In this document: one piece after another, positions 1,415 to 41,158 of the stretch
Numbering within the stretch: position 1 is the stretch's first letter
How the letters are laid out: each line of letters begins with the position of its first letter
DNA from: an uncultured Eubacteriales bacterium
GTDB taxonomy: Bacteria; Bacillota; Clostridia; DSM-8532; CAYYEC01
Direction: 5' to 3'
Assembly (NCBI GenBank): GCA_964470745.1
Contig: CAYYEC010000001.1
Span: 1-41,247 of the forward strand
Length of the DNA stretch: 41,247 nucleotides
Program-made: the position numbers and the translations under genes
The notes under the pieces: model-generated
Seen by the model: the letters and a program-made list of their open reading frames with translations, nothing else
Database searches by the model: none
Told to the model about the DNA's origin: nothing

Positions 1415-1577
1415 ATATAAAAGTTTGTAGGTCTATTAAGTATATTATTCAGGTTATACAGAACACAAATTTAGGAAATAGATTTTATAATGCTTTGAAT
1501 GAAGTGGTGTACCTACCGGAATGCTACACAAGCCTCGACCAGCTAATAAAACTATAAAATAGAAGCGTAATAAACTA

Positions 1578-3083: not shown

Positions 3084-3442
3084 TAGATTTACCCCCATTT
3101 TACGTTCCCTAAGTTCCATTATAACATGTTTTTAATTGAAATATCTCTGGCAAAAAAAACAAGTAAAAGCAAAAGATTTATTTGTTTCATTTTAAAATGT
3201 AGTAGAAATAAATTTTATAAAAGTTTGTATTTTGATATGTGGTTCTAAATATATATGGTAATATAATGAATATAATGTTATATATGGAAAAATGTTTACC
3301 TATAATTATATGGGGGTAAATATTATAAAATTGGAGTTTATCTATTTTCGCTTATAGTTTTGAGAAAAACGCGGCGAAAAATAAGCACTAAATATTTTGT
3401 GGCGCCATAGATTGTTATATAACTCAGAAGGGGGTCGAGATC

Positions 3443-5377
3443 ATGAAAAATCATGATATTTCAAGTTTAATTAAGAAGGATAGAGAAGAAAGAAAAACTT
3501 CAGATTTTGAAGGGACTTTTATGGACTATGTTAATATAGTTAAAGAAAATCCTCATGTAGCGATATTAGCCCATCAGAGAATGTATGAATTAATTAACAA
3601 TCCTGGAGTGGAGATAATCAAAACAGATGAGAATCCCAGATTGAGAAGAATTTACGGAAATGACACCATAAAAAAATACAATTTCTTTTCGGATAATTTT
3701 TATGGGATAGATAAAACTATAATGAAAATTGCCAGATATTTTCACTCGGCCGCTATGGCGGGAGAAGAGGCAAGACAAGTGTTATATCTAGTTGGGCCAG
3801 TTGGTGCAGGGAAATCGTCTTTAATGGAGGCTTTGAAAAGTGCATTAGAGGAAAGTGAGCCAATATATGCATTAAAGGGATGCCCTATTAGAGAGGAACC
3901 TCTTCACTTAGTTCCTAAACACTTAAGAAAAGAATTTGAAGAGATATTGGATGTTAAAATTGAAGGAGATTTATGTCCAGTTTGCCGCTATAAGCTAAAG
4001 AATGAATATAAAGGAGAATATGAAGAATTTCCCGTTGAGCAGGTGGATTTTTCAATTAGGTCCAGGAAAGGTATAGGAGTGGTTCCTCCTGTTGATCCAA
4101 ACAATCAAGATACATCTGTGCTAATAGGTTCAGTTGATATTTCTAAAATTGACTTGTATGCAGAAGATGACCCAAGAGTATTATCTTTAAATGGAGCTTT
4201 TAATGTAGGTAACAGAGGAATTGTTGAATTTATTGAAGTATTTAAAAATGAAACTGAATATCTTCATACTATGATTACAGCAACACAAGAGAAGTCAATA
4301 CCCTCTCCCGGTAAAGGCTCAATGATTTATTTTGATGGAATAATTCTAGCTCATTCCAATGAGTCGGAATGGAATAAATTTAAATCTGACCACACAAATG
4401 AGGCTATACTGGATAGAATAGTGAAAATTGAAATTCCTTACTGTCTGGAATTAAATGAGGAAATTAAAATCTATAAAAAAATCCTTAAAAAGAGTAAGTT
4501 TGATGCTCATATTGCTCCTCATACCATTGAAGTTGCATCTATGTTTGCTATATTGTCAAGACTTACTCCGTCAAATAAGGTTGACCCAATGACAAAATTA
4601 AAAATTTATAATGGTGAAGAGATTATTGAAAAAGGTATGACAAGAAAAATAGACATTTTTGAGTTAAAGGATGAAGTAGCTTCCATGAGAGAGGGTATGA
4701 CTGGAATATCTACAAGGTTTATTATGAAAGCTCTTGATACAGCGCTGTCTGAATCTGAACATGATTGTATAAACCCTATTTCAATTATGGAGACATTGGT
4801 AAAGGCAGTAAAAGATATGTCTTTAAGTGAGGAAGAGGGAGTAAGATACTTAAGATTTATACAGGATTCAATAAAGAAGGAATATAATAAAATACTTGAA
4901 AAAGAGATAACAAAAGCATTTATTCATGGTTATAGAGAGCAGGCTGAAAGTCTTTTTAACAATTATCTGGATCATGCTGAGGCATTTGTGAATAAGACTA
5001 AGATAAAGGATAAAAACACTGGTGAAGAACTGGAGCCGGATGAAAAGTTCTTGAGATCAATAGAAGAACAAATTGGGATTTCAGGAACTGCAGCTAAAGG
5101 TTTTAGATCCGATGTTACAGCATATATGTTCTATGTGCTTCGAAACGGTGGAAAACTTGATTTTAATAGCTATGAACCTCTTAAAGAAGCAATTGAAAAG
5201 AAATTGACTGCTTCAGTTAGAGAGTTGAGCAGAATTATTACTTTAACAAAGGTAAGAGATAAGGAGCAAAATGAAAAATTTAATGCAATGGTTGAAGAAA
5301 TGAAGAAGAATGGATATTGTGATCACTGCTGTAATGTTGTATTGAAATATGCCGCTAATAATTTGTGGAAAGATTAG
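3443..5377 (+). CDS. prkA: PrkA-family serine protein kinase (AAA+/Lon-like)
   Basis: 644 aa with Walker A LVGPVGAGKSS. It has full-length PrkA/YeaG character and sits with yhbH and spoVR. Confidence 0.9.
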   Translation: MKNHDISSLIKKDREERKTSDFEGTFMDYVNIVKENPHVAILAHQRMYELINNPGVEIIKTDENPRLRRIYGNDTIKKYNFFSDNFYGIDKTIMKIARYFHSAAMAGEEARQVLYLVGPVGAGKSSLMEALKSALEESEPIYALKGCPIREEPLHLVPKHLRKEFEEILDVKIEGDLCPVCRYKLKNEYKGEYEEFPVEQVDFSIRSRKGIGVVPPVDPNNQDTSVLIGSVDISKIDLYAEDDPRVLSLNGAFNVGNRGIVEFIEVFKNETEYLHTMITATQEKSIPSPGKGSMIYFDGIILAHSNESEWNKFKSDHTNEAILDRIVKIEIPYCLELNEEIKIYKKILKKSKFDAHIAPHTIEVASMFAILSRLTPSNKVDPMTKLKIYNGEEIIEKGMTRKIDIFELKDEVASMREGMTGISTRFIMKALDTALSESEHDCINPISIMETLVKAVKDMSLSEEEGVRYLRFIQDSIKKEYNKILEKEITKAFIHGYREQAESLFNNYLDHAEAFVNKTKIKDKNTGEELEPDEKFLRSIEEQIGISGTAAKGFRSDVTAYMFYVLRNGGKLDFNSYEPLKEAIEKKLTASVRELSRIITLTKVRDKEQNEKFNAMVEEMKKNGYCDHCCNVVLKYAANNLWKD

Positions 5378-5380
5378 GTT

Positions 5381-5455
5381 GAGATTGAGCTTGAGTATAT
5401 TATCACACGAAGTGTGATTATACAAATCTTAATCTTAATCTGCACCAAAGGTGCA
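5381..5455 (+). other. Structured intercistronic element (long imperfect hairpin plus small SD-proximal hairpin) between prkA and yhbH
   Basis: 5382-5395 pairs with 5428-5441 (11 WC, 2 GU, 1 mismatch). This encloses the hairpin ATCACAC-GAA-GTGTGAT (5402-5418). TGCACC-AAA-GGTGCA follows at 5441-5455, just before the SD GGAGGTG. Confidence 0.55.
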
Positions 5456-5472
5456 CATGGAGGTGAATTGAG

Positions 5473-6687
5473 ATGGCTATTTTTAAGGAATTTAATGCAG
5501 AGAAGAATGACCGAAGTGCTGAGGATAGAAGAAGACATCGACAATTGGTTGAAGAGTCTATAAAAAAAAATATAACTGATATCATTGCAGAAGAAAGCAT
5601 TATTGGACAAAGCAAGAACAAGAAAATAAAAATACCAATAAAGAGCATTAAAGAGTACCAATTTATATATGGTAAAAATTCAGGTGGAGTTGGCTCTGGG
5701 GATGGAAGTGAAAAACGAGGAGACAAAGTTGGAGAAGATGGTTCTGGAAAAAGTGGTAAAGGAAAAGGACAGGCAGGAAATGATGAAGGAGAAGATATAT
5801 ACGAAACAGAGATTACGCTTGAGGAATTAATAAATTATTTATTTGAAGATTTGGATTTACCTGACATTGATAAAAAGAAGATGGCAGAAATAGAATCAAC
5901 AAAGAGCCATAGGAATCTTGGATACCAAAGAAAAGGAATCCCACCAAGGTTAGCAAAGAAACGATCTGTAATAGAAAAAATCAAAAGAAAACAAGCATAT
6001 AAGAGATCTCATGATTTAAACAATGATGTAGAAGAGAATAACTCCACGGGCTTGGAATTGGAACAAGATAATGATAAAAGATTTCCATTTAGTGAGGATG
6101 ATTTAAGATATAAGAGATTAAAGGAAACCCGTAAGAAAGAGTTTAATGCAGTAGTTATATGTATAATGGATGTCTCTGGTTCAATGGATCAAACCAAAAA
6201 GTACATGGCCAGAAGTTTTTATTTTATGTTATATCAATGGATACGTACAAAATATACAAATGTTGAGGTAGTGTTTGTATCTCATACAACAGTTGCAAAA
6301 GAAGTTAATGAACAAGAATTTTTTCATAAGGGAGAGTCAGGAGGTACCTATATAAGTAGTGGCTATGAAAAGGCTCTGGAAATAATTGAGCAAAGGTATA
6401 ACCCTGTTTCATGGAACATTTACGCATTTCATTGCAGTGATGGGGATAACTGGTCGGAAGATAATAAAAAGGCAGTTGAGTCTGCTCAGAAGCTTTGTGA
6501 GGTATGTAATCTTTTTGGATATGGAGAGATTATTTCCGGCTATTATTTTTCAACCAGCACTATTAAAACCGAATTCCAAAAGAATATTAATAATAAAAAT
6601 TTTGCAGTAATAACTATGACTAAGAAAGAAGATATATTTCCAGGATTGAAAAAGCTGCTGGAAAAAGAAGGTGAGAAAGGGAATTGA
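5473..6687 (+). CDS. yhbH: YhbH/YeaH-family protein (DUF444, vWA-like), sporulation/stress associated
   Basis: 404 aa with a glycine/charged linker, then a vWA-like MIDAS motif (IMDVSGSM). It sits between prkA and spoVR. Confidence 0.85.
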   Translation: MAIFKEFNAEKNDRSAEDRRRHRQLVEESIKKNITDIIAEESIIGQSKNKKIKIPIKSIKEYQFIYGKNSGGVGSGDGSEKRGDKVGEDGSGKSGKGKGQAGNDEGEDIYETEITLEELINYLFEDLDLPDIDKKKMAEIESTKSHRNLGYQRKGIPPRLAKKRSVIEKIKRKQAYKRSHDLNNDVEENNSTGLELEQDNDKRFPFSEDDLRYKRLKETRKKEFNAVVICIMDVSGSMDQTKKYMARSFYFMLYQWIRTKYTNVEVVFVSHTTVAKEVNEQEFFHKGESGGTYISSGYEKALEIIEQRYNPVSWNIYAFHCSDGDNWSEDNKKAVESAQKLCEVCNLFGYGEIISGYYFSTSTIKTEFQKNINNKNFAVITMTKKEDIFPGLKKLLEKEGEKGN

Positions 6688-6732
6688 GAATGTAGAATTA
6701 TTTTTCTCTTTCTGTTTTTGTAGAGGATAAGG

Positions 6733-6802
6733 TTGAGGCTAAGAATTTAAGCAATTATTATTTAAATAATAATTTATTTTTGTATCTTAATCTTAATCTC
6801 AA
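6733..6802 (+). other. Second copy of the structured intercistronic element (yhbH-spoVR gap)
   Basis: TTGAGGCTAAGAATTTAAG (6733-6751) pairs with CTTAATCTTAATCTCAA (6786-6802). Between them is the perfect AT palindrome AATTATTATTTAAATAATAATT (6753-6774). Confidence 0.5.
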
Positions 6803-6829
6803 TTCTCAATTAAACTGGGGGTGTTGCTA

Positions 6830-8218
6830 ATGGCTGACTATAGTATAAATGAACTTAAAATGTGGAATGAGAAAGTTGAGGAAATAGCCCGGGAAGTGGG
6901 GCTTGATTATTATGAACAGGAATTTGAAATATGTGATTATGAAGATATGATTGGTTATGAAACGTATATAGGTATGCCTTCTCACTATCCGCACTGGAGT
7001 TTTGGGAAATCATATGAAAAAACAAAGACTCTTCATAGATATAATCTGTCAGGCTTGCCGTATGAGATGGTAATAAATTCAGACCCATGTATAGCATACT
7101 TAATGAAGGATAATACATTACTGTTGCAAATATTAACAATAGCACATGTTTATGGTCATAATGACTTTTTTAAGAATAATAGGTTGTTTAAAACTGGAAC
7201 AAGAGCCGGATATACTATTGAAACATTTAAAAATCATGCAAATAGAATAAGAGAATATATAGCTGATCCTACTATAGGTTATGAAAAAGTAGAAAAGATA
7301 CTAAATGCTGCTCATGCTCTAAAGCTTCAAACAAATAGAACTATTGGAGAGAAAAGATTGTCAACAGAAGAACTATTTGAGCGCAAGTTAGAGAACTTAA
7401 AAAAACCTGAAAGTGAATATCCTTTGTTAGAACTTAAAAAAACTAAGGAAGATATTCCAATAAATCTTAAAAAAATCCCAATTGAACCAGAAGAGGATAT
7501 ATTATTTTTTATATCCAGCTATGGAAGATTGAATGATTGGGAAAAAGATATTTTAGATATAGTAAGAGAGGAGACATCTTACTTTATTCCTCAAATGGAA
7601 ACAAAAATAATGAATGAAGGATGGGCAAGTTTTTGGCATTATAATATTCTAAAGAAGCTTGGACTTCCTCAGGGCTTGCATATAGAATTTTTAAAAAGAC
7701 ATAATCAGGTTATTAGACCACATTCGGGTAATATTAATCCTTATTTTGTAGGGTTTAAAATATTTGAAGATTTATATAAAGAGGGGGAAGGTATTAAGAA
7801 GATTTTTGAAGTAAGAGAAAATGAAAGAGACAATTCATTTTTGAGAAGATATCTTACCTACGATTTATGTAATGATATGAATTTGTTTGAGTATGTGAAA
7901 AGTGGAAAGGACTATATTGTATCTGAAGTGTCTGATGAAGAAGGATGGAAGAAAGTACGAGATTCTTTAGCAAATAGTGTTGGATTGGGTTCCGTACCAG
8001 TAATTAAAGTCATTGAATATGTTCAAAAGGATAATACCCTGATTTTAGAACATGAATATACAGGAAGAGAGCTTGAATTAAGCTATACCTATGAAACTTT
8101 AAAGCATATTGTTGATTTGTGGGATGGAAAGGTTATGCTGGATACTGTGCTGGATGAAAAGAGAAAGATTATTATGTGCGATGAGAACAAAAAGATTTCT
8201 ATGGTCAATGGTGAGTGA
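6830..8218 (+). CDS. spoVR: Stage V sporulation protein R (SpoVR/YcgB family)
   Basis: SpoVR-type motifs are present (HYPHWSFGK, AHVYGHNDFFKNN, NEGWASFWH). Start moved to the ATG at 6830, 7 nt after GGGGGTG. Confidence 0.9.
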   Translation: MADYSINELKMWNEKVEEIAREVGLDYYEQEFEICDYEDMIGYETYIGMPSHYPHWSFGKSYEKTKTLHRYNLSGLPYEMVINSDPCIAYLMKDNTLLLQILTIAHVYGHNDFFKNNRLFKTGTRAGYTIETFKNHANRIREYIADPTIGYEKVEKILNAAHALKLQTNRTIGEKRLSTEELFERKLENLKKPESEYPLLELKKTKEDIPINLKKIPIEPEEDILFFISSYGRLNDWEKDILDIVREETSYFIPQMETKIMNEGWASFWHYNILKKLGLPQGLHIEFLKRHNQVIRPHSGNINPYFVGFKIFEDLYKEGEGIKKIFEVRENERDNSFLRRYLTYDLCNDMNLFEYVKSGKDYIVSEVSDEEGWKKVRDSLANSVGLGSVPVIKVIEYVQKDNTLILEHEYTGRELELSYTYETLKHIVDLWDGKVMLDTVLDEKRKIIMCDENKKISMVNGE

Positions 8219-8509
8219 TTACATTATGGATGACAAATGTTGACAAATAGAGGAAGGATAAAAAAGATTTTAATAGTAAAAGCTCTGAAGAGAAGCAACT
8301 TTTTGGGGTTTTTACTTTGACTGACTTTTATTATTTAAATTTTATTTGTTAAAAAAACACGGATTATCAAAAAAACATTTATAAGCATAGTAAAATGTAT
8401 TTAAGAAAACTATCTTGAGGCTTATTTTCTTTAAGAAAAAACTATCAAATATGACAAACATATGTCCAATTTATGTTGTATAATTACTTTGAGGGGATGT
8501 GTGGCCAAA

Positions 8510-9421
8510 ATGAAGATAAATAGATTGCTTGAAATAACGATAATTTTACTAAATAAAGGAACCATTACTGCAAAAGAGCTAGCAGACAGGTTTGGGGTGT
8601 CTTCCAGAACAATCTATAGGGATGTTGATGTATTATCAAGTGCTGGAGTGCCTGTTTTTACGAATAAAGGCAACAGGGGTGGTATTTCTCTTTTGGAAAA
8701 CTACTCCCTTAATAAAACTCTCATATCAGAACATGAAAGTGAAAGTCTGTTGTTTGCTCTTAAAACTCTGCAGGCAACGAAATATCCTGAAATTGATAAT
8801 ATTCTTGATAAAATTGGAGCAGTATTCAAAAATACAGATTCAGCAGACTGGGTATATATTGATTTTTCTCCATGGAGTAGCAGGCCTAATGAATATAATA
8901 AGTTTATTGATATTAAAAAGGCAGTACTTGAACGTAAAATAATTTCATTTGATTATGTAAATGTTGAGGGAGGAAGAAGCTTCCGCAGAATTGAACCCAT
9001 GCGGTTAATATTCAAGGGTCAGGCATGGTATTTATGTGGGTATTGTAAAACAAGGAAGGAATTTCGTACTTTTCGTATTTCCAGAATGAAGAATGTAATT
9101 GTGACAGGTGAAGCCTTTGAAAGAAGAAAGCCGGAAGACTTTGTAAATCATAGGCACGCTGAAACCCCTAAAAAACTAATAAATTTGAAACTTAGATTTT
9201 ATCCTGAGGCTTTATACAGGCTTTATGATGATTTTGATGATGAGTTTATCATCAAAAATACTGATGGTACGTTTGCGGTATCAGTCACATTCCCAGAAGA
9301 TGAGTGGGTATATGGATACATAATGTCGTTTGGATGCTATGTTGAGGTATTGGAGCCAAAATATGTACAGCAAATAATTGCAGAAAGAATAAGAAAAACT
9401 TTGGAATTTTATGATAGATAA
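8510..9421 (+). CDS. YafY-family transcriptional regulator (wHTH + WYL + C-terminal extension)
   Basis: N-terminal MKINRLLEITIILLNKG...RTIYRDVDVL HTH; a WYL-type core (AWYLCGYC...FRTFRISRM); C-terminal ...VEVLEP... segment. Confidence 0.85.
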   Translation: MKINRLLEITIILLNKGTITAKELADRFGVSSRTIYRDVDVLSSAGVPVFTNKGNRGGISLLENYSLNKTLISEHESESLLFALKTLQATKYPEIDNILDKIGAVFKNTDSADWVYIDFSPWSSRPNEYNKFIDIKKAVLERKIISFDYVNVEGGRSFRRIEPMRLIFKGQAWYLCGYCKTRKEFRTFRISRMKNVIVTGEAFERRKPEDFVNHRHAETPKKLINLKLRFYPEALYRLYDDFDDEFIIKNTDGTFAVSVTFPEDEWVYGYIMSFGCYVEVLEPKYVQQIIAERIRKTLEFYDR

Positions 9422-9527: not shown

Positions 9528-9908
9528 ATGAAGAAAAAAGATGCTTTTTTAATTTCAGTAAGTAGTGATTTAGAAGCAAGTATGATTATTCCTGTATTAA
9601 TTGATAATGAAATTCCAGCCTATAAAAAATTTAAGGGATCTGGTTCCTATACTAATATATATATGGGAATGTCCAAAATGGGTATAGATATTTATGTTCC
9701 AGAGGAACAGTTAGCGAAGGCAAAAGAAATAGTACGAAGTATGAGTTACCAGAAAGAAAGTTCATTTTCTGATAATGAATTAGATGAAATTGAAAAGGAT
9801 TTCGCAAGAAAAAGACGAATAAGGGTTTGGATAGCAATATTATTGTTTATGCCTGGGATAATTTGGTTTGTGATTATGTTTATTGTAAAGTTATTAAATA
9901 TAATTTAA
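9528..9908 (+). CDS. DUF2007-like small protein with C-terminal TM helix
   Basis: Good SD (AAAGGAG). Has a DUF2007-like beta-alpha pattern (EASMIIPVLIDNEIPAY...IDIYVPEEQLAKAKEIV) and a hydrophobic tail. Confidence 0.55.
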   Translation: MKKKDAFLISVSSDLEASMIIPVLIDNEIPAYKKFKGSGSYTNIYMGMSKMGIDIYVPEEQLAKAKEIVRSMSYQKESSFSDNELDEIEKDFARKRRIRVWIAILLFMPGIIWFVIMFIVKLLNII

Positions 9909-9978
9909 TTATTATAAACTAATTTCGATTTATCATTTCCTTAAGGCTTCTATTCTTAAATATTCCGGCAATAATATT

Positions 9979-11010
9979 TTAAACAATCAGTACAATAATC
10001 GGTCCTAATATTAAGCCTTTTACGCCTAAAAACTGTAGCCCAGTATACATTGCAAATAGTGTCAGAAGTGGGTGTACTCCAATCTGCTGACCTAAGATTT
10101 TTGGTTCAGTCAGTTGTCTCACAATAAGAACAATTACGTATATTATTAATAAAGATACTCCCATTCTATAGTTTTTTGTGATAAATTCATATATAGCCCA
10201 GGGAATTACAATTCCACCGGTACCTAGAATTGGAAAAGCATCGATTATACTAATAAAAAATGAAATAAGCAATGAATGTTTTACCTTCATTATAGCAAAA
10301 CCTATATTCAGTTCTGTAAAAGTAATTGTCATCAGAATTAATTGAGCGCGAATATATCCAAATAGTGCAGAAAATAAATCATCGCGAATACTCTGCATTT
10401 TATTAACCCATGAATTAGGCAATTGATCAAGCATAAAGTTATGAATTCTTTTTCTATCACTTGCTAAAAAATATGTTGCGAGAATTGTGACTAATGTAAA
10501 TAGAAAGATCTGAGGTATTGATTTTGCGAAGGCTAAAATACCATCAAAAATAATATTTAAGAATTGGGTAATATAACCAGGGATATCTGAGGTTTTAAGA
10601 AAATTATCTATATAATCAGTAACTTCAGTAGGCAGCCATAGATATAAGTCATTTGCCTTATTTATAAATGTAGCTACAGTAATTTCTATTTTCTCATAAT
10701 ATTCTGGTACTATATTATTAATTTGGCCTTTTAAACTACTTATTTCGGAAATTAATCTTACTATGATAATAGTAATAACAGTTCCAAAAGTTGAAACTAC
10801 AAATAAGACTGATATTAACGATGCTAGACGTCTTGATATTTTAGCTTTATTTGTTAAAAAACGAATTAAAGGTTCTATTGAACTTGAAATAGCAAATGCA
10901 ACGATAAATGGAGCAATATAAAAGCTAAGCTTATAAATAAGAAACATTGAAATAATTGCTAATAGTATAATTAGAGAAGCTTTAATTGATTTTTTTACTG
11001 TGCTATTCAT
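9979..11010 (-). CDS. AI-2E family transporter / YtvI-like integral membrane protein
   Basis: 343 aa, about 8 TM helices, PerM/AI-2E-type pattern (DAFPILGTGGIVIPWAIY). Confidence 0.75.
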   Translation of the reverse strand: MNSTVKKSIKASLIILLAIISMFLIYKLSFYIAPFIVAFAISSSIEPLIRFLTNKAKISRRLASLISVLFVVSTFGTVITIIIVRLISEISSLKGQINNIVPEYYEKIEITVATFINKANDLYLWLPTEVTDYIDNFLKTSDIPGYITQFLNIIFDGILAFAKSIPQIFLFTLVTILATYFLASDRKRIHNFMLDQLPNSWVNKMQSIRDDLFSALFGYIRAQLILMTITFTELNIGFAIMKVKHSLLISFFISIIDAFPILGTGGIVIPWAIYEFITKNYRMGVSLLIIYVIVLIVRQLTEPKILGQQIGVHPLLTLFAMYTGLQFLGVKGLILGPIIVLIV

Positions 11011-11130
11011 TTTTTCACCTTTAATAGTTTAATTTAAGAAATTCATAACTTTAGTTTAAACTAGTATTTCAAGTCAGTCAACTAAATGTTTAGTCAAAAT
11101 TATTTAAAGCTAAAAAAATAACAAATTTTG

Positions 11131-11159
11131 TTGATAAAAATTTACTAGTGTGGTATACT
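11131..11159 (+). promoter_or_regulatory. Sigma-A type promoter for rpsB (TTGATA-17-TATACT, TG-extended)
   Basis: -35 TTGATA at 11131-11136, a 17-nt spacer ending in TGG, -10 TATACT at 11154-11159. About 100 nt of leader precede rpsB. Confidence 0.6.
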
Positions 11160-11266
11160 ACATAACGGAAAATACGCACGTATCATGATTTTAAGAAAAG
11201 TGCCAAAATGGATTTCTTAAAAGATGAAGGATACGGAGGTATAAAACTATTTAGGAGGTTTTTATA

Positions 11267-12037
11267 ATGGCAGTAATATCAATGAAACAATTATTAGAAG
11301 CAGGTGTTCACTTTGGTCACCAGACTAGAAGATGGAACCCGAAAATGGCAGAGTATATTTTTACAGAAAGAAACGGAATCTATATTATTGATTTACAGAA
11401 AACTGTAAAAAAAGTTGATGATGCTTATTTCTTTATAAGAGAAATTGCAATGAACGGTGATGATGTTCTATTTGTTGGAACAAAGAAGCAAGCTCAAGAT
11501 GCAATAAAGGAAGAAGCAGAAAGATGTGGTCAATACTTTGTAAACGTTAGATGGTTAGGTGGAATGTTAACTAACTTTAAAACAATACGTAAAAGAATTG
11601 ACAGGTTAAATGAATTAACTAAAATGGAGCAAGAAGGTGTTTTCGAAGTTTTACCTAAGAAAGAAGTTATTAAGCTAAAAGGTGAAATGGATAAGCTTGA
11701 GAAGAATCTTGGTGGTATTAAAAACATGAAGAAGATTCCAGGTGCTTTATTTATAGTTGACCCTAGAAAAGAAAGAATAGCAATTATGGAAGCTAGAAAA
11801 CTTGGTATTCCAGTTGTAGCAATTGTTGATACAAACTGTGACCCTGATGAAGTTGATTATGTTATTCCTGGTAATGATGATGCAATAAGAGCTGTTAAAT
11901 TAATTGCTGGAAAAATGGCTGATGCTATACTTGAGTCAAGACAGGGTGAGCAATTAGAAGATACAAATGAATCAATATCTATAAATGAAGAAGTAAGCGA
12001 AAATAAAGAAGTGGAAGTAGTTGAAGCTGCGCAATAA
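11267..12037 (+). CDS. rpsB: 30S ribosomal protein S2
   Basis: [27 protein letters not shown] is the canonical S2 N-terminus; strong AGGAGG SD. Confidence 0.97.
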
Positions 12038-12087
12038 CTAACTTAATGAGAATTAAGTTAATTAAGCAAATTTATAGTATGTACTTA

Positions 12088-12123
12088 AGTAAGGAGGAAA
12101 TATTTAAGTATTTCTTCCTTACT
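12088..12123 (+). terminator. Stem-loop between rpsB and tsf (partial terminator/attenuator)
   Basis: AGTAAGGAGGAAATA / TATTTCTTCCTTACT forms a 15-bp stem with one G-T pair. The following tract is T/A-rich rather than a clean U-run. Confidence 0.5.
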
Positions 12124-12196
12124 TTATATATAGATTACATAGTTTTATATTGCAAAGTTAATAATATGAATAATTCAAGTTTGGAGGAATATAATT

Positions 12197-12844
12197 ATGA
12201 TTACAGCTAGCATGGTTAAAGAGCTTCGTGAAAGAACTGGAGCAGGTATGATGGATTGTAAGAAGGCTCTTTCAGAATCAAATGGTGATGTTGACAAGGC
12301 TATAGATCTTTTAAGAGAAAAAGGATTGGCAGCTGCTGCAAAAAAATCAGGAAGAATAGCTGCAGAAGGTATTGTGGAAGCTTATATTCATGGAAATGGT
12401 AGAATAGGCGTTTTAGTTGAAGTAAATATAGAAACTGATTTTGCTGCAAAAAATGAAGATTTTAAAAATTTTGTTAAGGATGTTGCACTGCAAATTGCTG
12501 CAAGTAAACCTGAATATGTTAGTAGAGAAGAAGTTCCAGCAGAAGTTATTGAGAAAGAAAAAGAAATATTAAAAGCTCAAGCTTTAAATGAAGGAAAACC
12601 TGAAAAAATTGTTGAAAAAATGGTTGAAGGAAGAATCGAGAAATATTATAAAGAAGTTTGTTTATTGGAGCAACCATATATAAAAGACCCGGATAAAACA
12701 ATTCAAACGCTTTTAACTGAAAAGATAGCAGCAATCGGTGAAAATATGAATATTAGAAGATTTATTAGATTTGAGATGGGTGAAGGATTAACTAAAAAAG
12801 AAGAAAATTTTGCTGATGAAGTTATGAAGCAGGTTAATGGTTAA
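12197..12844 (+). CDS. tsf: Translation elongation factor Ts (short form)
   Basis: The [27 protein letters not shown]-like N-terminus is diagnostic of EF-Ts. Confidence 0.95.
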
Positions 12845-26328: not shown

Positions 26329-26374
26329 TGTATGTAATGAAGTGGAATCAGAATAATAAGGAGTGAAGGAAAAA

Positions 26375-26830
26375 ATGGATAAATACTATACAGTTGACCA
26401 AATAGCAAAAATACTTAATATACACCCCAAAACGATTCAACGATACATTAGGGAAGGGAAATTAAATGCAACTAAGGTAGGAAAAAGTTGGCGTGTCACT
26501 GGACACGACTTAAGTGTATTTACGGAAGTAACAAATTATATTTCGGGTAGAACTATAACAACGAAAACAGCTGAAGAATCTAGGGAGGATAAAATAAAAA
26601 TATCTGCTGTAGTTGATATTGATATTGATGATATGGATGAAGGAATGCGTATTGTGAATATGCTTACAGCGGTACTCAATGTAAAGCCTCCCGAGTATGG
26701 TAAGTCTACCATGAATGCTCAATTTATAGAATCAGAGCGAAAAGTAAGAGTGATGTTATGGGGTAACATCAAATTTATGGAAAATATGATCAGTAGTTTA
26801 TCAGTTCTGACTGATCAGGAAAAACAGTAG
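26375..26830 (+). CDS. Excisionase/MerR-superfamily HTH (HTH_17-type) protein with uncharacterised C-terminal domain
   Basis: YYTVDQIAKILNIHPKTIQRYIREGKLNATKVGKSWRVTGHDL. ATG at 26375 follows AAGGAG. Confidence 0.7.
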   Translation: MDKYYTVDQIAKILNIHPKTIQRYIREGKLNATKVGKSWRVTGHDLSVFTEVTNYISGRTITTKTAEESREDKIKISAVVDIDIDDMDEGMRIVNMLTAVLNVKPPEYGKSTMNAQFIESERKVRVMLWGNIKFMENMISSLSVLTDQEKQ

Positions 26831-34333: not shown

Positions 34334-34828
34334 ATGTGTATTAATGAAAAAATAGTTGAGATGCTTAAAAAGAACAAGTTATTGATTAGTACTATGGAAA
34401 GTTGTACAGGTGGTAATATTCTTAATCAAATTACAAATATTGAAGGTGCATCTAGGATCACAAATGGAGGGTTTGTTACTTATAGTAATCAACAAAAGAT
34501 AAAAATGGGAGTTTCTAAAGAAGTTATTGAAAAGTATGGTGTATATAGTCCAGAATGTGCTCGTGCAATGGCTAATGCGGCTTTGAATAATATTGTTTCG
34601 GATATAGGTATTGGTGTTACAGGTACATTTAGTAATCTTGACACTGATAACCTAAATAGTAATTTAGGGTTAATATTTTATTGTATAAGTTATAGTAATC
34701 GTATTAATAGAGTAAACAAGAGAATTAGTGAAGGACAAATTCAAGTGCCAAATATGCATAGGCATTTACAAAAACAATATGTTACAGATGTAATATTTAA
34801 TAGTCTATATGATTTACTCAGATATTAA
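34334..34828 (+). CDS. CinA C-terminal domain / PncC-like nicotinamide-nucleotide amidohydrolase
   Basis: LISTMESCTGGNILNQITNIEGASRITNGGFVTYSNQQKIKMGVS...GVYSPECARAMANAA follows the ESCTGG...GG.VTYSN..K...LGV...GAVS...A..MA signature of PncC/CinA-C. 164 aa. Confidence 0.8.
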   Translation: MCINEKIVEMLKKNKLLISTMESCTGGNILNQITNIEGASRITNGGFVTYSNQQKIKMGVSKEVIEKYGVYSPECARAMANAALNNIVSDIGIGVTGTFSNLDTDNLNSNLGLIFYCISYSNRINRVNKRISEGQIQVPNMHRHLQKQYVTDVIFNSLYDLLRY

Positions 34829-34915
34829 GTTGATTAATATTTTTTTAGAACTGAAAATTTTGCTTAAGGTATCAAATTTTCTTTGAGCTTAAATAAGTTT
34901 TGGGGGATAGTTTGT

Positions 34916-35710
34916 ATGAATAAAAAAAATCAAATAACTATAGTAATGCTATTAGGAATTTTAATACTTATAATTTCATTTTTTCTAAAAGAAAAAACTA
35001 TGTCTTTTGAAAGTTTCATCTTTCAAGCATTGTTTAATATTGCCTTTGTTTTAATAACTATTGCTTTAGTAAATGTCATTTGGGGCTTACTTGGAGGAGA
35101 ACCTTTAGAAAAAATGTTAGATGGATTGCGAAGCTCCATAAAACTGCTAGGGGATAGTACAGAAAGTGGTATTACTAGATTTTTGTATGCTAATGATAGA
35201 TATACTAGCAAAGATTGGCATGAAATTTTATGTAGAAGCAAATACAAGATAGATTTACTTGGCTATACATTGAATACTTGGTCGCGAATTGAGGGATTTG
35301 AAGAAGAACTAATAAATAGGGTTAAAGCAGGTGTAAAAATAAGGGTACTCTTTATGGATGAGAAAAATCCATTTTTAAATGCAAACATAAATTATGAACA
35401 AATCAAATCATTAAGCGTACCCATTGTTGAAAATGAGATATATTCTTCGACTGATTTTTTTTCTGATATAATGAAAAGATCAGTAGGTGAGAAAGGAGTT
35501 AAAGGTTCATTTGAAATGAGAAAAGTTAAGAAAGGTCTTATAATGAGTCAAATATGCATTTTTGATGATACATCGATAATAACACCATATTTGCACTCTG
35601 TAACAACACCACATAGTCCTCTTATTATAATAAAAGGACAGGAAAGTAGAGTGTTTAAAAAGTATCAGAAAGAGTTTGATTCATTTTGGGAATTAAATAA
35701 TAATAGATAA
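34916..35710 (+). CDS. 2TM membrane protein with C-terminal PLD-fold-like (DUF5919-like) domain lacking HKD
   Basis: Two hydrophobic helices (ITIVMLLGILILIISFFL; FNIAFVLITIALVNVIWGLLG). The soluble domain has KIDLLGYTLNTW / VKIRVLFMDEKNP / ICIFDDTSIITPYLH strands. ATG at 34916, 8 nt after GGGGGA. Confidence 0.55.
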   Translation: MNKKNQITIVMLLGILILIISFFLKEKTMSFESFIFQALFNIAFVLITIALVNVIWGLLGGEPLEKMLDGLRSSIKLLGDSTESGITRFLYANDRYTSKDWHEILCRSKYKIDLLGYTLNTWSRIEGFEEELINRVKAGVKIRVLFMDEKNPFLNANINYEQIKSLSVPIVENEIYSSTDFFSDIMKRSVGEKGVKGSFEMRKVKKGLIMSQICIFDDTSIITPYLHSVTTPHSPLIIIKGQESRVFKKYQKEFDSFWELNNNR

Positions 35711-35810
35711 AGAATACAATTTATCTATTATTGATCTTTAATTTGGATGAAGATGTTGACAAACGTTTATTACAGTTCTGTGTGAATGGTAAAATTATGG
35801 AGTTATAAAA

Positions 35811-38444
35811 ATGAGAAAGATTAGTATAGGAGATATAATCAGAATATTACTCAAGACATTTGAATTATATGATCAGCATAAAAAAATAGTTTATAGTTAC
35901 TTATTGATGGGATGTAATTTAAAAATTACATTAACTATGAATTCAGAATACAAAATACTAAAACAATTATATGGGTTACTAAGTTATAGAAACGTAGATA
36001 GCATAAAAAGAACATTCGAAAGATATAGTATTGAGACTAAGTTTGATGATAAAGGCAATGCCATTTATAATACATATAATTTACTAGATATTTGGGATAA
36101 TCTCGGTAAAAAGTATTTAATTTTTAAGGATAATGTATATATTAATATTTTGAACTTTGAAGAGTGGAAAAGGTATTTCCATGCTCTTGATGAAGATTTA
36201 ATTGTATTAAATCATTTAGTTAAGCAAAGATATTCATGTAAAAAGCCAGAAATTTCAAATATAAGCCAATTTGTATTTAAAATGAAGACATTTATTACGC
36301 CTTACGAACCAAAATTAAAGGCAATATTGAATAGAGGGGTAGGAATTCAGCATTTACATTTGTCAGGTAGCTATCCGGCCCCATATCTTTGGGTAGCGTT
36401 AATGAATAATAGAATTATTAACATGGATATTTTCAATTCCAGTAATTTTGATGAAGCAATAAAATACAATAATATTGAGAATATAGCTGTATTATGTAAA
36501 ATGATTAATATGGCAAGAATAATTCGTCTATGTTTGTTTGAATATATTATAGCTTATATAAAAAATGGCTTTAAAGTAGAAAATAGGAATTCGGAAAAAA
36601 TGAGTATACTATTAAGTGAGCTCTCGAAGAATATTAATCACTCTGGAGACTATTTTTATGAGATCTATCAAGATATCAATATTAAAATCTGCGAATTGAA
36701 AGCCAATCATAGAGACTATGCTTTCACACTGAGCTTTATAGATGATGATAATTGCCGTATTGTTTCCAAGTCATTAGTCGGAGAACGATTAATACTTTTT
36801 TACGTTTTATATTTAATTAATGATAGTAGTTTTCAAGATAATGAAATTTTGTCAAAATTGATTTGGATATATATACAAGCTAAAAATTCTTTCCTCTGCA
36901 AAGTTCAACAGGAAGAAGGGATATCGGGGATAGATTTTTTTGAATATACATTAAAGGCTGTAGTATGGAGTTATGATGAAGATCATGAATTCTGTAAAGA
37001 GATAGGAGAATTCTTACAAGAGACACAATCTGTTATAAAAGCTGAACTAATGATTTCGCCTCAAAGTAGCTTAGTTGATTATGATAAAAAATTAAAACAG
37101 ATATCAATTATAAGAGATAGTATGAGAGCGAGTCTTTGTGAAAAGTTAAAACAAGAATATCAAGACGTTAAAATTGGTGTAATAGTACATTTCAAAAAGG
37201 ATGACGAGGTTTATTTAAGCAAACGTATTTCAAGTAGTAATGATTCTTATAAAATCTCTCACTTTCAAAAAAGAGATGTAAATATACAAGATTGTAACAT
37301 GCTAATTAGATATAAAAAAGAAACCAATACGTTTGAAAAAAATAATAATATGCCAATTGTAGCAATTGATGCAACAAGTAAAGAAGTTTATTGTTCTCCT
37401 GAAATATTTAGCGAAGCTTATAATTTATTATTTGGCTATAATAATAATATAGAATCAGGGTTTAAGTTGGTTGGTAGAACATTTCATGTGGGTGAGGAAT
37501 ATATTTCATTAGCTACAGGTTTAAGAAGAATATATGAAGCTATCTGCTTCCTAGGCTTAGAAAAAGGAGATAGACTGGGGCATTGTATTGCACTAGGGGT
37601 AGACTCCAAATTATGGGTATATGATAATCCCCAAATAGATATGAGTTTAATAGATTTATTAGATGATTATGTTTTTGAGTGGCACTTGTTAAAAAATAAT
37701 TATAATTATGATTTTAAAAACAGAATTAATGAAATTGAAATGAGGATAGCTAAATATTCTAAACAAGTTTTTGGAGTACCAATCTATCCGACAATATTAT
37801 TTTCAGCGTGGCAATTGAGAGGGAATATCTCACATAACTTGGCATGTAATTTTGATGACGATAATACAATTCCTTATTGGATTAAACTGCAAGGGAAAAT
37901 TATGGAGTGCTCATCAGTTTCTGGCACACATCAGGCTATACCCAGTCTAGATGCGCTTTTGAGTATAGCTGATAAATACAATATTATTTATGACAAATTG
38001 AAAGTTGAACTGCCTTGCAGTATTGAGGAAAGAATTTTGCATGAATACTTGTATGATAAACATACAAATGAGTCTTTTATTCAAAGGGTATCTATTGATA
38101 CAGTTAAAGAGGCTGTTCACTTAAAAAATATTCAAGATATAGTAGCTGATTTTTTATATGATAGAGGTATTAGTATAGAATCTAATCCAACATCAAATTG
38201 GTTAATTGGAGGATTTGAGAAATTTTATGATATACCCTGTGTTCAGTGGATTATTAATAAATCAAGTTTTGCTTTTTCGCTAAACATTGATGATCCTACT
38301 GCATTTGGGAATTCAGTTGAGAATGAATATTATTTAGTATATTCAAGTATTCGGAAATGTATAGAGAATATGATATCTGAAGATGTAGCTTTAAAAAAGA
38401 TTAACGAAATTAGATTAAACTCAATTAAATTAAGTTTTATATAA
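35811..38444 (+). CDS. Large (877 aa) adenosine/AMP-deaminase-fold metallohydrolase with N-terminal extension and two large insertions
   Basis: Ordered signatures: HLH (aa 181-183), HVGE (559-562), GH (591), ESNPTSN (790-796), NIDDP (825-829). GGAG SD lies 9 nt upstream. Confidence 0.8.
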   Translation: MRKISIGDIIRILLKTFELYDQHKKIVYSYLLMGCNLKITLTMNSEYKILKQLYGLLSYRNVDSIKRTFERYSIETKFDDKGNAIYNTYNLLDIWDNLGKKYLIFKDNVYINILNFEEWKRYFHALDEDLIVLNHLVKQRYSCKKPEISNISQFVFKMKTFITPYEPKLKAILNRGVGIQHLHLSGSYPAPYLWVALMNNRIINMDIFNSSNFDEAIKYNNIENIAVLCKMINMARIIRLCLFEYIIAYIKNGFKVENRNSEKMSILLSELSKNINHSGDYFYEIYQDINIKICELKANHRDYAFTLSFIDDDNCRIVSKSLVGERLILFYVLYLINDSSFQDNEILSKLIWIYIQAKNSFLCKVQQEEGISGIDFFEYTLKAVVWSYDEDHEFCKEIGEFLQETQSVIKAELMISPQSSLVDYDKKLKQISIIRDSMRASLCEKLKQEYQDVKIGVIVHFKKDDEVYLSKRISSSNDSYKISHFQKRDVNIQDCNMLIRYKKETNTFEKNNNMPIVAIDATSKEVYCSPEIFSEAYNLLFGYNNNIESGFKLVGRTFHVGEEYISLATGLRRIYEAICFLGLEKGDRLGHCIALGVDSKLWVYDNPQIDMSLIDLLDDYVFEWHLLKNNYNYDFKNRINEIEMRIAKYSKQVFGVPIYPTILFSAWQLRGNISHNLACNFDDDNTIPYWIKLQGKIMECSSVSGTHQAIPSLDALLSIADKYNIIYDKLKVELPCSIEERILHEYLYDKHTNESFIQRVSIDTVKEAVHLKNIQDIVADFLYDRGISIESNPTSNWLIGGFEKFYDIPCVQWIINKSSFAFSLNIDDPTAFGNSVENEYYLVYSSIRKCIENMISEDVALKKINEIRLNSIKLSFI

Positions 38445-38478: not shown

Positions 38479-39015
38479 ATGATATTTAGTGAGAAGTGTG
38501 GAATGAAAAACAGTTGTAGAATCTTACTAGGACTCGATTGTAATTATAAGTGCGAATATTGCAGTAACAAGATACCAGGACTGATTGAAAAGTTTAAGTC
38601 AGTTTCAACCATAAGTGAAATTGGTATTTGCAGGTATGAAAACATCTGTATATCCGGTGGAGAACCTTTAATGAGTAAGTACATAAACGAATTGTGGGAG
38701 GTTATCACATTATCAAAATTAAACAAATGTAAAGTATTTATATATACAAATCTGAGTATATTACCTTCTAATGATATGATTGGTAAAGTAGATGGATGGA
38801 GTATTGGATTTCATGCTTTCCAAACCGAGACGTTAGGTTTTATAGACAGAGTTAATAAACTATTAAAAATGGGCGCAGATAATGTAAGAGTATTGGTGGA
38901 AAATATTGAAGCAAGCAAATTAGCAGTTTTTTTGCCTAACAATATAATAAAACCTTGGATTCGTAATGATTGTGACAAAACTAACATAGAAGATTGGTAT
39001 ATTTTAGATAAATAA
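38479..39015 (+). CDS. Minimal radical SAM protein (NrdG/QueE-sized, about 170-178 aa)
   Basis: CNYKCEYC (C21/C25/C28, CX3CX2C) and the SAM-binding ISGGEPL motif. There is no C-terminal SPASM or other extension. Confidence 0.7.
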   Translation: MIFSEKCGMKNSCRILLGLDCNYKCEYCSNKIPGLIEKFKSVSTISEIGICRYENICISGGEPLMSKYINELWEVITLSKLNKCKVFIYTNLSILPSNDMIGKVDGWSIGFHAFQTETLGFIDRVNKLLKMGADNVRVLVENIEASKLAVFLPNNIIKPWIRNDCDKTNIEDWYILDK

Positions 39016-39054: not shown

Positions 39055-40122
39055 GTGTATAATGTAGGTGCTATTATTGGATTATTTTCTTTTCCTCATA
39101 AAGGGCATTTAAATGCCATTTTAAAGGCTAGTACTTATTGTGAGGAGTTATATGTTGTAATAATAAGTAATGATTTTATGGAAGAACAACTATATAAAAA
39201 TATAGCTATAAAAAGATTAACTATGAAAGAAAAGGCAAGATGTTTATCTTTTGAACTTAATGGATTTGATCATATAAAAATATTAATGATAGAAACTAAT
39301 GATGTTACAGTAAAAAATCTAAATTTAGAAATAGTTCTCAAAAAGATAACCGGCTTATTAAACAAAGATGTAGATGTAATATTTAATTGTGAATTAGAAA
39401 ATAAAGAAATTTTCAATTGCCACTCTATTGATAGTAAACTAGAAGTATTTAACGCTGATTATGTGATGATAACGATACATACATCGAATGTGTTAAATAA
39501 TATTTATATGAACTGGGATTTGGTTTTAGGATCTTTACGCGCATATTATGCAAAAAAAGTAGTTTTCGTAGGTACTGAAAGTTGTGGTAAAACAACACTT
39601 GTAAAAATGCTTGCAAAATTATTTAATACTACTTATGCAGAAGAAGCAGGCAGGTATTATGCTTCAAAATATATGGGCGGAAATGAGAATGTATTTATGT
39701 TGAGAGATTTTTATAATATTGCAATTGAGCAAAGACAGTTAGAAGAAAATGCATTACTATGTGCTAACAAAATTTCATTCTTTGATACTGATTTAGTAGT
39801 TACACAGCTTTATTGCAAACTCTTTACTGGTGAATACAATCCTGATATTGAACCTTTAATTGATAAATACAGATATGATATGGTTGTTTTCTTAGAACCT
39901 GATACAAAGTGGGTAGCTGATGGAATTAGATTTGCGGATAATCAGTCTAAGAGAGTTAAATATTCAGAGCAACTGAAAAAGTTGTATAGCTATTATGGCT
40001 ATGGAGAAAGATTAGTGGTAATAAGCGGCTCTTATAATGAAAAACTCAGTAAATGTGTTGAAATAAGCAAAAATTTATTATTAGAGAATAACATTAGAAA
40101 TGTAGTTTCTAAGTTTTTATAG
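39055..40122 (+). CDS. NadR-like bifunctional protein (NMN adenylyltransferase-like + ribosylnicotinamide kinase-like P-loop domain), no N-terminal HTH
   Basis: PHKGH (HxGH) at aa 14-18. Walker A VGTESCGKTTLVKMLAKLFNTTYAEEAGR, then FFDTDLVVTQ and KWVADGIRF, as in NadR RNK domains. GTG start 7 nt after AAGGAG. Confidence 0.8.
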   Translation: MYNVGAIIGLFSFPHKGHLNAILKASTYCEELYVVIISNDFMEEQLYKNIAIKRLTMKEKARCLSFELNGFDHIKILMIETNDVTVKNLNLEIVLKKITGLLNKDVDVIFNCELENKEIFNCHSIDSKLEVFNADYVMITIHTSNVLNNIYMNWDLVLGSLRAYYAKKVVFVGTESCGKTTLVKMLAKLFNTTYAEEAGRYYASKYMGGNENVFMLRDFYNIAIEQRQLEENALLCANKISFFDTDLVVTQLYCKLFTGEYNPDIEPLIDKYRYDMVVFLEPDTKWVADGIRFADNQSKRVKYSEQLKKLYSYYGYGERLVVISGSYNEKLSKCVEISKNLLLENNIRNVVSKFL

Positions 40123-40381
40123 AATTTACTATTAGAAATTGGATTATTTTTTTTCAAACCGTTTATTTTATAAGGGATATTAAATGGTAATATTTATAAA
40201 GGAATTATATAAAACTGCTATTTTGTTGAGTACTGTGTGTTTTTGGCAGATTGCAAGCTAATATTCAGATACAAGATGGAATGGAAACTGAAACATAAAT
40301 TTTGTTAAAAGAAAGCTAATTCTGGACTTCATTGATATGAAAAACAATATTATCAAGCCATTATTTATTTGGAGGTTTTTT

Positions 40382-41158
40382 ATGGATGTTAAAGAAGAGT
40401 TATTCGGAGAAAACTATCTGTTTACACGTGAAGATGTTTTAAAGTCATTAGAGTTATTTATTGAACACGAAAAATTAAATGAAGAGCCTGGGTATTCAAA
40501 TGAAGTTGTAAAAAACAGAGTAAAGCTTTGTCAAAAATTTCATGCAGCTATAAAGAAATGTAAACTTCCGGTTTTGACAGAACTTTGGTGGTTCTATGAA
40601 TATCAGTTTTTAGGAAATAGTATGGAGTTGAATCTATGTCAGGCTGATGAGATTGAAGTTGAAAATGATGAAATTAATGGTATGATCTCAACCGTGGAAC
40701 ACACTTTAATAAAGGTCGAATGTGATTATATTTCTGTTGAACAATATGCCTCCATGCTTGATATTGAGCCTGTTACGGTCAGGCAATGGATTAGGCGTGG
40801 GAAATTAAGACATGCAAAAAAGAATGGACGCGATTGGTTGATTCCCAATACTGAAGATAAGCCACGGCGTGGTTTTACCAGTGTGCAGTATATAGTAGAA
40901 AAAGAAGCCCAAATTGAAAGTGATGAATTCCCGTTGCTATCAACATGCAATTCAATATTGATCTTGCAAGATCAAGAGAATAAAAGCAAATTCATTTGTT
41001 ACCTCAATAATTATAAAACTAAATTCTGCAGTGAGCTTGAACTGACAAGAAGTGAAGTTGAACGGCTAGAACATACTATTATTGAATCTGGAAAAGCGCG
41101 GGTTGAAGGGAATATACAATACGTCCCTTATATTAGAGATAATGATGGTAGATATTAA
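40382..41158 (+). CDS. Excisionase-type HTH (HTH_17) domain protein with unknown N- and C-terminal regions
   Basis: ISVEQYASMLDIEPVTVRQWIRRGKLRHAKKNGRDWLIP. ATG at 40382 lies 7 nt after GGAGG; the longer ORF start at 40337 lacks an SD. Confidence 0.65.
   Translation: MDVKEELFGENYLFTREDVLKSLELFIEHEKLNEEPGYSNEVVKNRVKLCQKFHAAIKKCKLPVLTELWWFYEYQFLGNSMELNLCQADEIEVENDEINGMISTVEHTLIKVECDYISVEQYASMLDIEPVTVRQWIRRGKLRHAKKNGRDWLIPNTEDKPRRGFTSVQYIVEKEAQIESDEFPLLSTCNSILILQDQENKSKFICYLNNYKTKFCSELELTRSEVERLEHTIIESGKARVEGNIQYVPYIRDNDGRY

Follow-up and report, generated by a model that had tools for sequence, protein, structure and literature searches.

The window analyzed here is the entire 41,247-bp contig CAYYEC010000001.1 of an uncultured Eubacteriales bacterium (assembly GCA_964470745.1), and it carries a gene for an 877-amino-acid (aa) protein that, judged by sequence and by predicted structure, belongs, as a divergent member, to the RdrB branch within the adenosine-deaminase superfamily. 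RdrB is the ATP-deaminating component of RADAR, an anti-phage defense system in which the AAA+ ATPase RdrA and RdrB are encoded in tandem in all known instances and are both essential (PMC9994260). The protein falls into a rare, sharply separated clade whose loci lack an adjacent RdrA gene. The reading that is probably correct is that these proteins are stand-alone RdrB-type adenine-nucleotide deaminases that would serve as defense-island effectors without RdrA. The RdrB family and its insertions are already known; what is new is the rare RdrA-less RdrB-like clade, and a literature search found no description of a solo RdrB lineage.

Catalytic core and insertions of the deaminase

The gene is an uninterrupted open reading frame (ORF; Table 1), and its start codon is right because the N-terminus is conserved from M1 onward in clade homologs. 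The translation carries, in order on a TIM-like barrel, the HxH, HxxE, H, and DD elements that make up the catalytic and zinc-binding set of the adenosine/AMP deaminase superfamily, and H181-L-H183 is the sole HxH in the protein. None of the seven catalytic residues (H181, H183, H559, E562, H591, D827, and D828) varies among the 12 clade sequences. The Pfam model A_deaminase (PF00962) scores 39.2 bits against a gathering cut-off of 27 (E 5.8e-10), the match being confined to residues 778-842, which form the C-terminal strands. In Escherichia coli RdrB, the histidine tetrad and catalytic glutamate are H152, H154, H498, E501, and H530, as established by structure and mutagenesis (PMC9994260). 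Since the Pfam match passes its cut-off, the residues are invariant across the clade, and five of them align with these E. coli residues, the motifs are not a product of chance.

The regions outside the catalytic core correspond to those of RdrB. The published RdrB anatomy comprises an extension at the N-terminus (insertion 1), an insertion 2 that splits the core, and an insertion 3 following the last of the catalytic histidines; in the E. coli protein these serve as oligomerization modules, forming the interfaces (2-fold and 3-fold) of its dodecameric shell (PMC9994260). The NCBIfam RdrB model (NF041744) aligns residues 74-813 with model positions 50-770 of 850 (E 9.4e-36), and the PADLOC RdrB models also match (E 3.7e-23). 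When PDB sequences are searched with phmmer, only E. coli RdrB (8fnv, 8fnw, 8hr7) is recovered (E 1.3e-18), in four collinear blocks that cover the HxH region, insertion 2, the HxxE and H motifs together with the beginning of insertion 3, and the C-terminal strands. Alignment of the clade profile with a RADAR profile built from 21 RdrBs of RdrA-containing loci (hhalign) gives a probability of 100% and an E value of 4.5e-93 over 777 columns, spanning residues 49-877 of the window protein. Insertion 2 is collinear with RdrB 276-324 in the phmmer match and is covered in hhalign as well; the boundaries of insertions 2 and 3 are approximate. The clade and RADAR RdrBs have about 70 conserved positions in common, distributed over the core and all three insertions. 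Those in insertion 2 include the invariant residues A235, R239, Y303, E325, Y354, Q367, G373, F374, and F377, and the shared positions not found in ADA proteins include H460, F461, K463, R488, D520, W667, R670, Y746, and Q775.

The predicted fold agrees with the profiles. An AlphaFold2 (AF2) model of the monomer, built from a 12-sequence alignment, has a mean predicted local distance difference test score (pLDDT) of 83.6 and a predicted TM-score (pTM) of 0.86. Searched against the PDB with Foldseek, it places eight RdrB chains on top (8fnv/8hr7; E 7e-27 to 3e-23), with TM-scores of 0.62-0.66 normalized to the query (TMq) and 0.69-0.73 normalized to the target (TMt). Adenosine and adenine deaminases and Cad1 rank after RdrB and match in the core only (TMq about 0.22-0.26), the Foldseek probability for the ADA structures being 1.00. 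The full arrangement of the RdrB family, a deaminase core with insertions 1, 2, and 3, is thus recovered both by hhalign and by Foldseek.

A preliminary description of this DNA, made from the letters and a list of ORFs, had read the motifs (at nucleotides 36351, 37485, 37581, 38178, and 38289) as a deaminase barrel with a complete catalytic set. It had counted 376 residues between HxH and HxGE and 236 between the third histidine and DD, and had proposed an extension at the N-terminus plus two large insertions. Checked against the translation, every motif lies at the residue and nucleotide given and the spacings are arithmetically correct; the completeness of the catalytic set is borne out by the Pfam match, the clade-wide invariance, and the alignment with RdrB, and the extension and both insertions have equivalents in the published anatomy. 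The view that some 500 extra residues are unrecognizable did not survive, as the profile comparisons and Foldseek show each segment of them to be homologous to its counterpart among insertions 1, 2, and 3 of RADAR RdrB.

A rare clade without an adjacent RdrA

The association of RdrB-like genes with RdrA was followed with a hidden Markov model (HMM) of RdrA, iterated across every ORF in the retrieved loci and seeded on two RdrA genes. These came from the P0013 and P0014 loci, the two weakest matches of the first homology search, in which a gene of 849-952 aa matching E. coli RdrA (8fnt/8hr7) stands directly upstream. In 72 of the 79 RADAR-type loci an RdrA ORF ends no more than a few hundred bases upstream of RdrB; a contig end cuts five others, an RdrA fragment is present in one, and one (L065) has an unrecognized 652-aa ORF. 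RdrA is absent from all ten distinct clade loci (the window, L001, L003, L004, L005, L006, L007, L012, L098, and the P0009 contig) over up to 10 kb on each side and, in the window, over 35.8 kb upstream. RdrA is adjacent, then, in 0 of 10 clade loci versus 72 of 74 evaluable RADAR-type loci (Fisher p = 2e-11; given the non-independence of clade members, the value is purely descriptive), and the tandem of RdrA and RdrB that marks RADAR occurs neither in the window nor at any other clade locus.

Other places for the missing partner were considered and rejected. An RdrA elsewhere in the window is excluded by PADLOC on the largest ORFs and by the RdrA HMM over ORFs of at least 100 aa, both with zero matches; the longest window ORF apart from the deaminase does not exceed 644 aa. 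The large neighbors at L006 (935 aa), L001 (515 aa), and L004 (450 aa) were rejected as cryptic RdrA proteins, having no match to PADLOC, Pfam, or the RdrA HMM. Among the RADAR-type loci, the 652-aa ORF of L065 (7397-9355), missed by the RdrA HMM and located upstream of an RdrB gene at 9707-12343, may encode a very divergent or replaced partner.

The clade is rare and stands apart from canonical RdrB. Scanned with a profile, 1.84 billion representative proteins yielded 3,544 relatives, with a wide gap in bit score between the eight full-length clade representatives, all at 747 or above (fragments score proportionally less), and all other relatives, at 288 or below. The clade thus accounts for about 8 full-length representatives out of roughly 1,800. 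In 185,579 species genomes relatives occur at 424 loci and the clade at only two, in a Lachnospiraceae metagenome-assembled genome (MAG) and in Corallococcus coralloides, that is, in Bacillota and Myxococcota. Known carriers include C. coralloides KYC2213 (CP172866.1), the Clostridia MAG GCA_035628995.1, and the Lachnospiraceae MAG MGBC129633, and a metagenome scan added three further distinct partial loci. A neighbor-joining tree of 15 sequences from the clade and 79 of RADAR type recovers the clade bipartition in 50 of 50 bootstrap replicates on an internal branch of 0.51; being unrooted, it is compatible with either a loss of RdrA by the clade or an origin before RdrA was recruited. Mean identity to RADAR-type RdrBs is about 21%. 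Fixed clade differences include L362, E369, P529, T569, R573, and F622, and a clade-specific extra segment of about 30-40 aa lies at approximately 700-740. No clade members were found in IMG/VR, INPHARED phages, PLSDB plasmids, or a viral structure library, the plasmid matches being RADAR-type only; carriage of the clade by phages or plasmids was rejected on these grounds.

The preliminary description had found no RdrA or CARF partner nearby, which holds for the whole window, and had thought the protein looked like a controlled effector rather than a salvage enzyme of about 330 aa, a view that gains support here. It had also named, as an outcome that would tell against it, clustering with a characterized metabolic family that has equivalent insertions. 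Part of that came to pass: the protein does join a characterized family with equivalent insertions, and the family is one of defense rather than metabolism. Because that family is the defense enzyme RdrB, the protein is best described as a homolog of one RADAR component without the other, and not as an unclassifiable deaminase.

Neighborhoods, proposed function, and alternatives

Most clade loci sit among genes of the kinds found in defense islands and mobile elements. The neighbors are HD-CE/HATPase, PLD, HNH, and KAP NTPase genes at L001; McrBC-like and HD-CE genes at L005; DUF6884, SIR2_2, nucleoside deoxyribosyltransferase, PIN-like domain, Schlafen/AlbA, and YhcG nuclease genes at L003; SIR2_2 and YhcG nuclease genes at L012; a TPR-CHAT gene at L096; an FRG gene at L095; and serine recombinase and transposase genes at L007. 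An all-versus-all comparison of neighbors across clade loci revealed no common partner gene, the only two cross-locus similarities being those between the HD-CE proteins of L001 and L005 and between the YhcG-type nucleases of L003 and L012, neither in a fixed position. Neither tblastx nor blastn turned up a conserved small ORF or DNA element in the 1.5-kb clade flanks, duplicate contigs excepted, and a small flanking partner of the toxin-antitoxin type was rejected on their results.

Two of these loci have arrangements of their own. Directly downstream of the L003 deaminase, at 5397-8001, a DUF6884 gene (PADLOC PDC-M57A) lies together with the SIR2_2 and nucleoside 2-deoxyribosyltransferase genes, a trio that may be a separate candidate defense system or a local partner. 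At L096 a partial clade deaminase (3-1280) is followed after 28 nucleotides (nt) by an 863-aa TPR-CHAT gene (1308-3899), the sole case in the clade of a tightly coupled large downstream gene.

As a stand-alone effector, the zinc-dependent barrel would deaminate adenine nucleotides, by analogy converting ATP and dATP to ITP and dITP, and the deamination would poison the nucleotide pool of the infected cell in the manner of abortive infection. By itself, purified E. coli RdrB turns ATP and dATP into ITP and dITP; it does not use AMP or adenosine, and it is toxic when overexpressed. ATP deamination has precedent only in the RdrBs of E. coli and Citrobacter rodentium (PMC9994260). Some intrinsic, expression, or substrate restraint would be required, since RdrA is absent, and control could thus lie in clade-specific parts of the polypeptide, in expression level, or in substrate availability. 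We infer the substrate, oligomeric state, defense role, and independence from a distant RdrA. A bolder proposal, at present somewhat doubtful, is that the clade constitutes a self-sufficient single-gene RADAR that would detect infection and turn on the deamination of nucleotides with no AAA+ partner. The sensing or gating might then fall to residues 1-48, to the 700-740 segment, and to the remodeled insertion 3 loop, and the assembly or substrate may differ from those of the ATP-acting RdrB dodecamer.

Several points weigh against a stand-alone RdrB-type effector. The NF041744 score is 123.6 bits, against an equivalog cut-off of 800. Met414 in the clade replaces the arginine of the ExRxxP strand, which is arginine in 79 of 79 RADAR RdrBs sampled. 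In insertion 3, E. coli RdrB has a loop bearing E595-E597, glutamates of the 3-fold interface whose mutation abolishes defense (PMC9994260); in the clade this loop is shrunk to G655-V-P657, and the region is variable among RADAR RdrBs too. Because the arginine is changed to Met414 and the interface-glutamate loop is absent, substrate and assembly may differ from those of RdrB, whose dodecameric shell docks RdrA heptamers in RADAR. An RdrB-type enzyme acting alone is also without precedent, as RdrA is essential in vivo in RADAR. Only about ten clade loci are known, several on short contigs, and the search for RdrA covered at most 10 kb on each side in most of them, which leaves room for a distant RdrA. 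Most neighbors in the window resemble NAD-salvage or housekeeping genes rather than defense genes, and all of the evidence on the clade is computational, drawn from sequence, predicted structure, and gene context.

The clade protein could instead be the RdrB half of a split RADAR, with an RdrA gene at another place in the genome whose product acts in trans. Such an arrangement would accommodate the finding that RdrA enhances RdrB activity and is needed for its activation and for defense in vivo (PMC9994260), and also the limited span of the flanks inspected, the window itself being a 41-kb contig. It is unlikely in view of the tandem arrangement of all known systems and of the adjacency counts given above, with RdrA directly upstream of nearly every evaluable RADAR-type RdrB and of no clade member. 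The clade, moreover, is set off by a long branch with full support, and its insertion 3 is remodeled, so that an old change of lifestyle fits better than repeated splitting of an operon.

In the window, the deaminase gene is followed on the same strand by genes for a radical SAM protein and a NadR-like protein (Table 1). Each has its own ribosome-binding site, and on reading the spacers no hairpin was seen; given the gaps of 34 and 39 nt, the shared strand, and the lack of an intervening hairpin, the three genes may be co-transcribed. They might form a nucleotide-modifying operon particular to this genome, in which the deaminase product is modified further or NAD is replenished, and the radical SAM and NadR-like proteins do match, weakly, prokaryotic viperin models and the viperin-associated kinase model, respectively. 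This explanation is improbable as well. The radical SAM matches (viperin, NrdG, and QueE models) are generic, cover the core motif only, and fall far under the cut-offs. The NadR-like protein has a nearest relative at 49% identity, and relatives at 42-45% identity (L091 6001-7032, L092 6001-7047) occur in phage-like contigs beside the NMN transporter PnuC, without a deaminase or radical SAM gene. Because its relatives adjoin PnuC in this way, the NadR-like gene suggests, with PnuC, a phage-type NAD-salvage module. Since neither partner accompanies the deaminase at any other clade locus, the local trio is a possible association that lacks support.

Table 1. Deaminase gene, its predicted motifs and insertions, and nearby features of the window (residue numbers refer to the 877-aa protein).
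Feature	Position	Strand	Remarks
CinA/PncC-type NMN amidohydrolase domain protein, stand-alone	34334-34828	+	164 aa; upstream of deaminase
Protein with two N-terminal transmembrane helices and weak PLD-like C-terminal domain	34883-35710	+	275 aa; PLDc_2 E 0.03; no family match; directly upstream of deaminase
AT-rich hairpin, 22 bp	35690..35744	+	overlaps stop codon of upstream membrane-protein gene; -15.3 kcal/mol, z -5.6, 0/200 shuffles as stable
Ribosome-binding site GGAG	35799..35802	+	8 nt before deaminase ATG; read from sequence
RdrB-like deaminase gene	35811..38444	+	ATG start; 877 aa; stop codon included; no internal stops
N-terminal extension (RdrB insertion 1), residues 1-175	35811..36335	+	only residues 1-48 outside profile-profile alignment; L103, W119 common to RADAR RdrBs
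H181-L-H183 (GIQHLHLSG), first two zinc-site histidines	36351..36359	+	phmmer counterpart E. coli RdrB H152/H154
Helical insertion 2, residues ~200-405	36408..37025	+	AF2 secondary structure; splits barrel between strands 177-183 and 408-415
H559-V-G-E562 (RTFHVGEE), zinc-site histidine and catalytic glutamate	37485..37496	+	counterpart E. coli RdrB H498/E501
H591 (RLGHCIALG), final histidine of tetrad	37581..37583	+	counterpart E. coli RdrB H530
Helical insertion 3, residues ~613-757, after last catalytic histidine	37647..38081	+	AF2 secondary structure, alignment occupancy, phmmer, hhalign gap
E790-SNPTSN, C-terminal barrel strands	38178..38198	+	E790, N792, P793, S795, N796 common to RADAR RdrBs
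D827-D828 (SLNIDDPTAFG)	38289..38294	+	equivalents of mammalian adenosine deaminase D295/D296
Minimal radical SAM protein	38479-39015	+	178 aa; C21-x3-C25-x2-C28, GGEPL; starts 34 nt past deaminase stop
NadR-like NMN adenylyltransferase with AAA_28 kinase, without HTH domain	39055-40122	+	NF005988 219.8 bits, above cut-off; 39 nt after radical SAM gene
Protein with excisionase-type HTH_17 domain	40337-41158	+	273 aa; contig end

A third alternative casts the clade protein as a signal-generating deaminase, its inosine nucleotide activating an effector encoded elsewhere such as a SIR2 NADase. The model is Kongming, in which the deaminase KomA is encoded in a three-gene operon with HAM1-like KomB and SIR2-like KomC and makes a dITP signal, and the authors of that work noted RADAR-like modules beside KomBC effectors (10.1101/2024.12.20.629578). 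A SIR2_2 gene lies within 2 kb in 2 of the 10 clade loci. The two SIR2_2 proteins are mutually dissimilar, the remaining eight loci have no SIR2 gene, no HAM1-like KomB gene was seen in any clade locus, and the SIR2 gene of L003 sits with the DUF6884 gene that matches the separate candidate system PDC-M57A; a signaling role of this type is accordingly given little credence. Least credible of all is a housekeeping or metabolic adenine-nucleotide deaminase in a coincidental defense-island setting, for although the window gene lies between NAD-related genes (CinA/PncC and NadR-like) on a chromosome with rpsB-tsf-pyrH-frr, the clade is very thinly and unevenly distributed (found in Bacillota and Myxococcota, in 2 of 185,579 species genomes), has no conserved metabolic neighbor among recurring restriction, nuclease, SIR2, and transposase genes, and has the defense enzyme RdrB as its closest characterized relative.

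The wider window has features that stand apart from these explanations. The contig is chromosomal, with a GC content of 31%, and carries prkA-DUF444-spoVR in addition to rpsB-tsf-pyrH-frr; its host is a low-GC, probably spore-forming member of the Bacillota. The CinA/PncC-type and NadR-like genes lend the region an NAD-salvage flavor, and the 275-aa membrane protein could be an unrelated membrane effector. The hairpin between that gene and the deaminase is likely, by inference, a terminator or other transcription-unit boundary, or alternatively may be a protein-binding inverted repeat. A second HTH_17/MerR-like protein is encoded at 26363-26830 and, with the one at the contig end, is a possible remnant of a mobile element. 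An HTH-WYL-WCX regulator (8462-9421, + strand) is of a kind often found beside defense systems and has no obvious defense gene adjoining it here. Promoter-like sites number 49 in the window versus 50.6 expected, promoter and terminator scans being uninformative in AT-rich DNA, and tRNA and Rfam scans of the window gave zero matches.

RADAR is described as an obligate two-protein machine (PMC9994260), and a conserved RdrB-like lineage that survives by itself in the defense islands of unrelated phyla allows two readings. Regulation of an RdrB-type deaminase may be possible in the absence of RdrA, or the enzyme may have been turned to some other purpose. Comparing solo and RADAR forms could separate the parts of RdrB used for activation from those used for catalysis, and a solo form would offer a simpler, one-gene tool for triggered conversion of ATP to ITP. 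Annotation pipelines currently label clade proteins "hypothetical" or "adenosine deaminase", and they are not counted as defense genes.

Comparison with known deaminase systems

The classical deaminases ADA, ADA2, ADE, and AMPD share with the clade protein the zinc ligands, the catalytic Glu, His, and Asp-Asp residues, and the barrel fold. They differ in being about 330-360 aa long, in lacking the three insertions, and in their metabolic roles and contexts, and in Foldseek they cover a quarter of the query (TMq 0.24). Cad1 is reported to be an immunity enzyme of adenosine-deaminase fold that converts ATP to ITP and has its control module in the same polypeptide (PMC11645235). The barrel is what the clade protein has in common with Cad1 of type III CRISPR systems (PDB 9C67), the structural match being limited to it (TMq 0.22-0.24, E about 1e-3), whereas a CARF domain is absent from the deaminase in Pfam, NCBIfam, and PADLOC searches. 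No cas genes occur among the window ORFs scanned.

KomA resembles the clade protein as a PF00962 deaminase that acts on adenine nucleotides in anti-phage defense. It is of ordinary adenosine-deaminase size, its HxH lies at residues 15/17, leaving no N-terminal extension, and it prefers dAMP. Neither a PF01725 nor a PF13289 protein, as would mark Kongming, was found among the window ORFs scanned.

RdrB itself (E. coli, PDB 8FNV/8FNW/8HR7; NF041744) is set apart from the clade protein by the low identity (about 21%), a family score of 124 versus 800 bits, the lack of an adjacent RdrA at every clade locus, Met414 in place of arginine, the missing E595-E597 loop, the extra segment at 700-740, and residues 1-48, which remain unaligned. 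It is nonetheless the system most fully matched, sharing the barrel with three insertions, the histidine tetrad, and the catalytic glutamate, with agreement in profile and fold over nearly the full length, a comparable size (877 aa here versus about 800-1050 aa), and a setting in defense islands.

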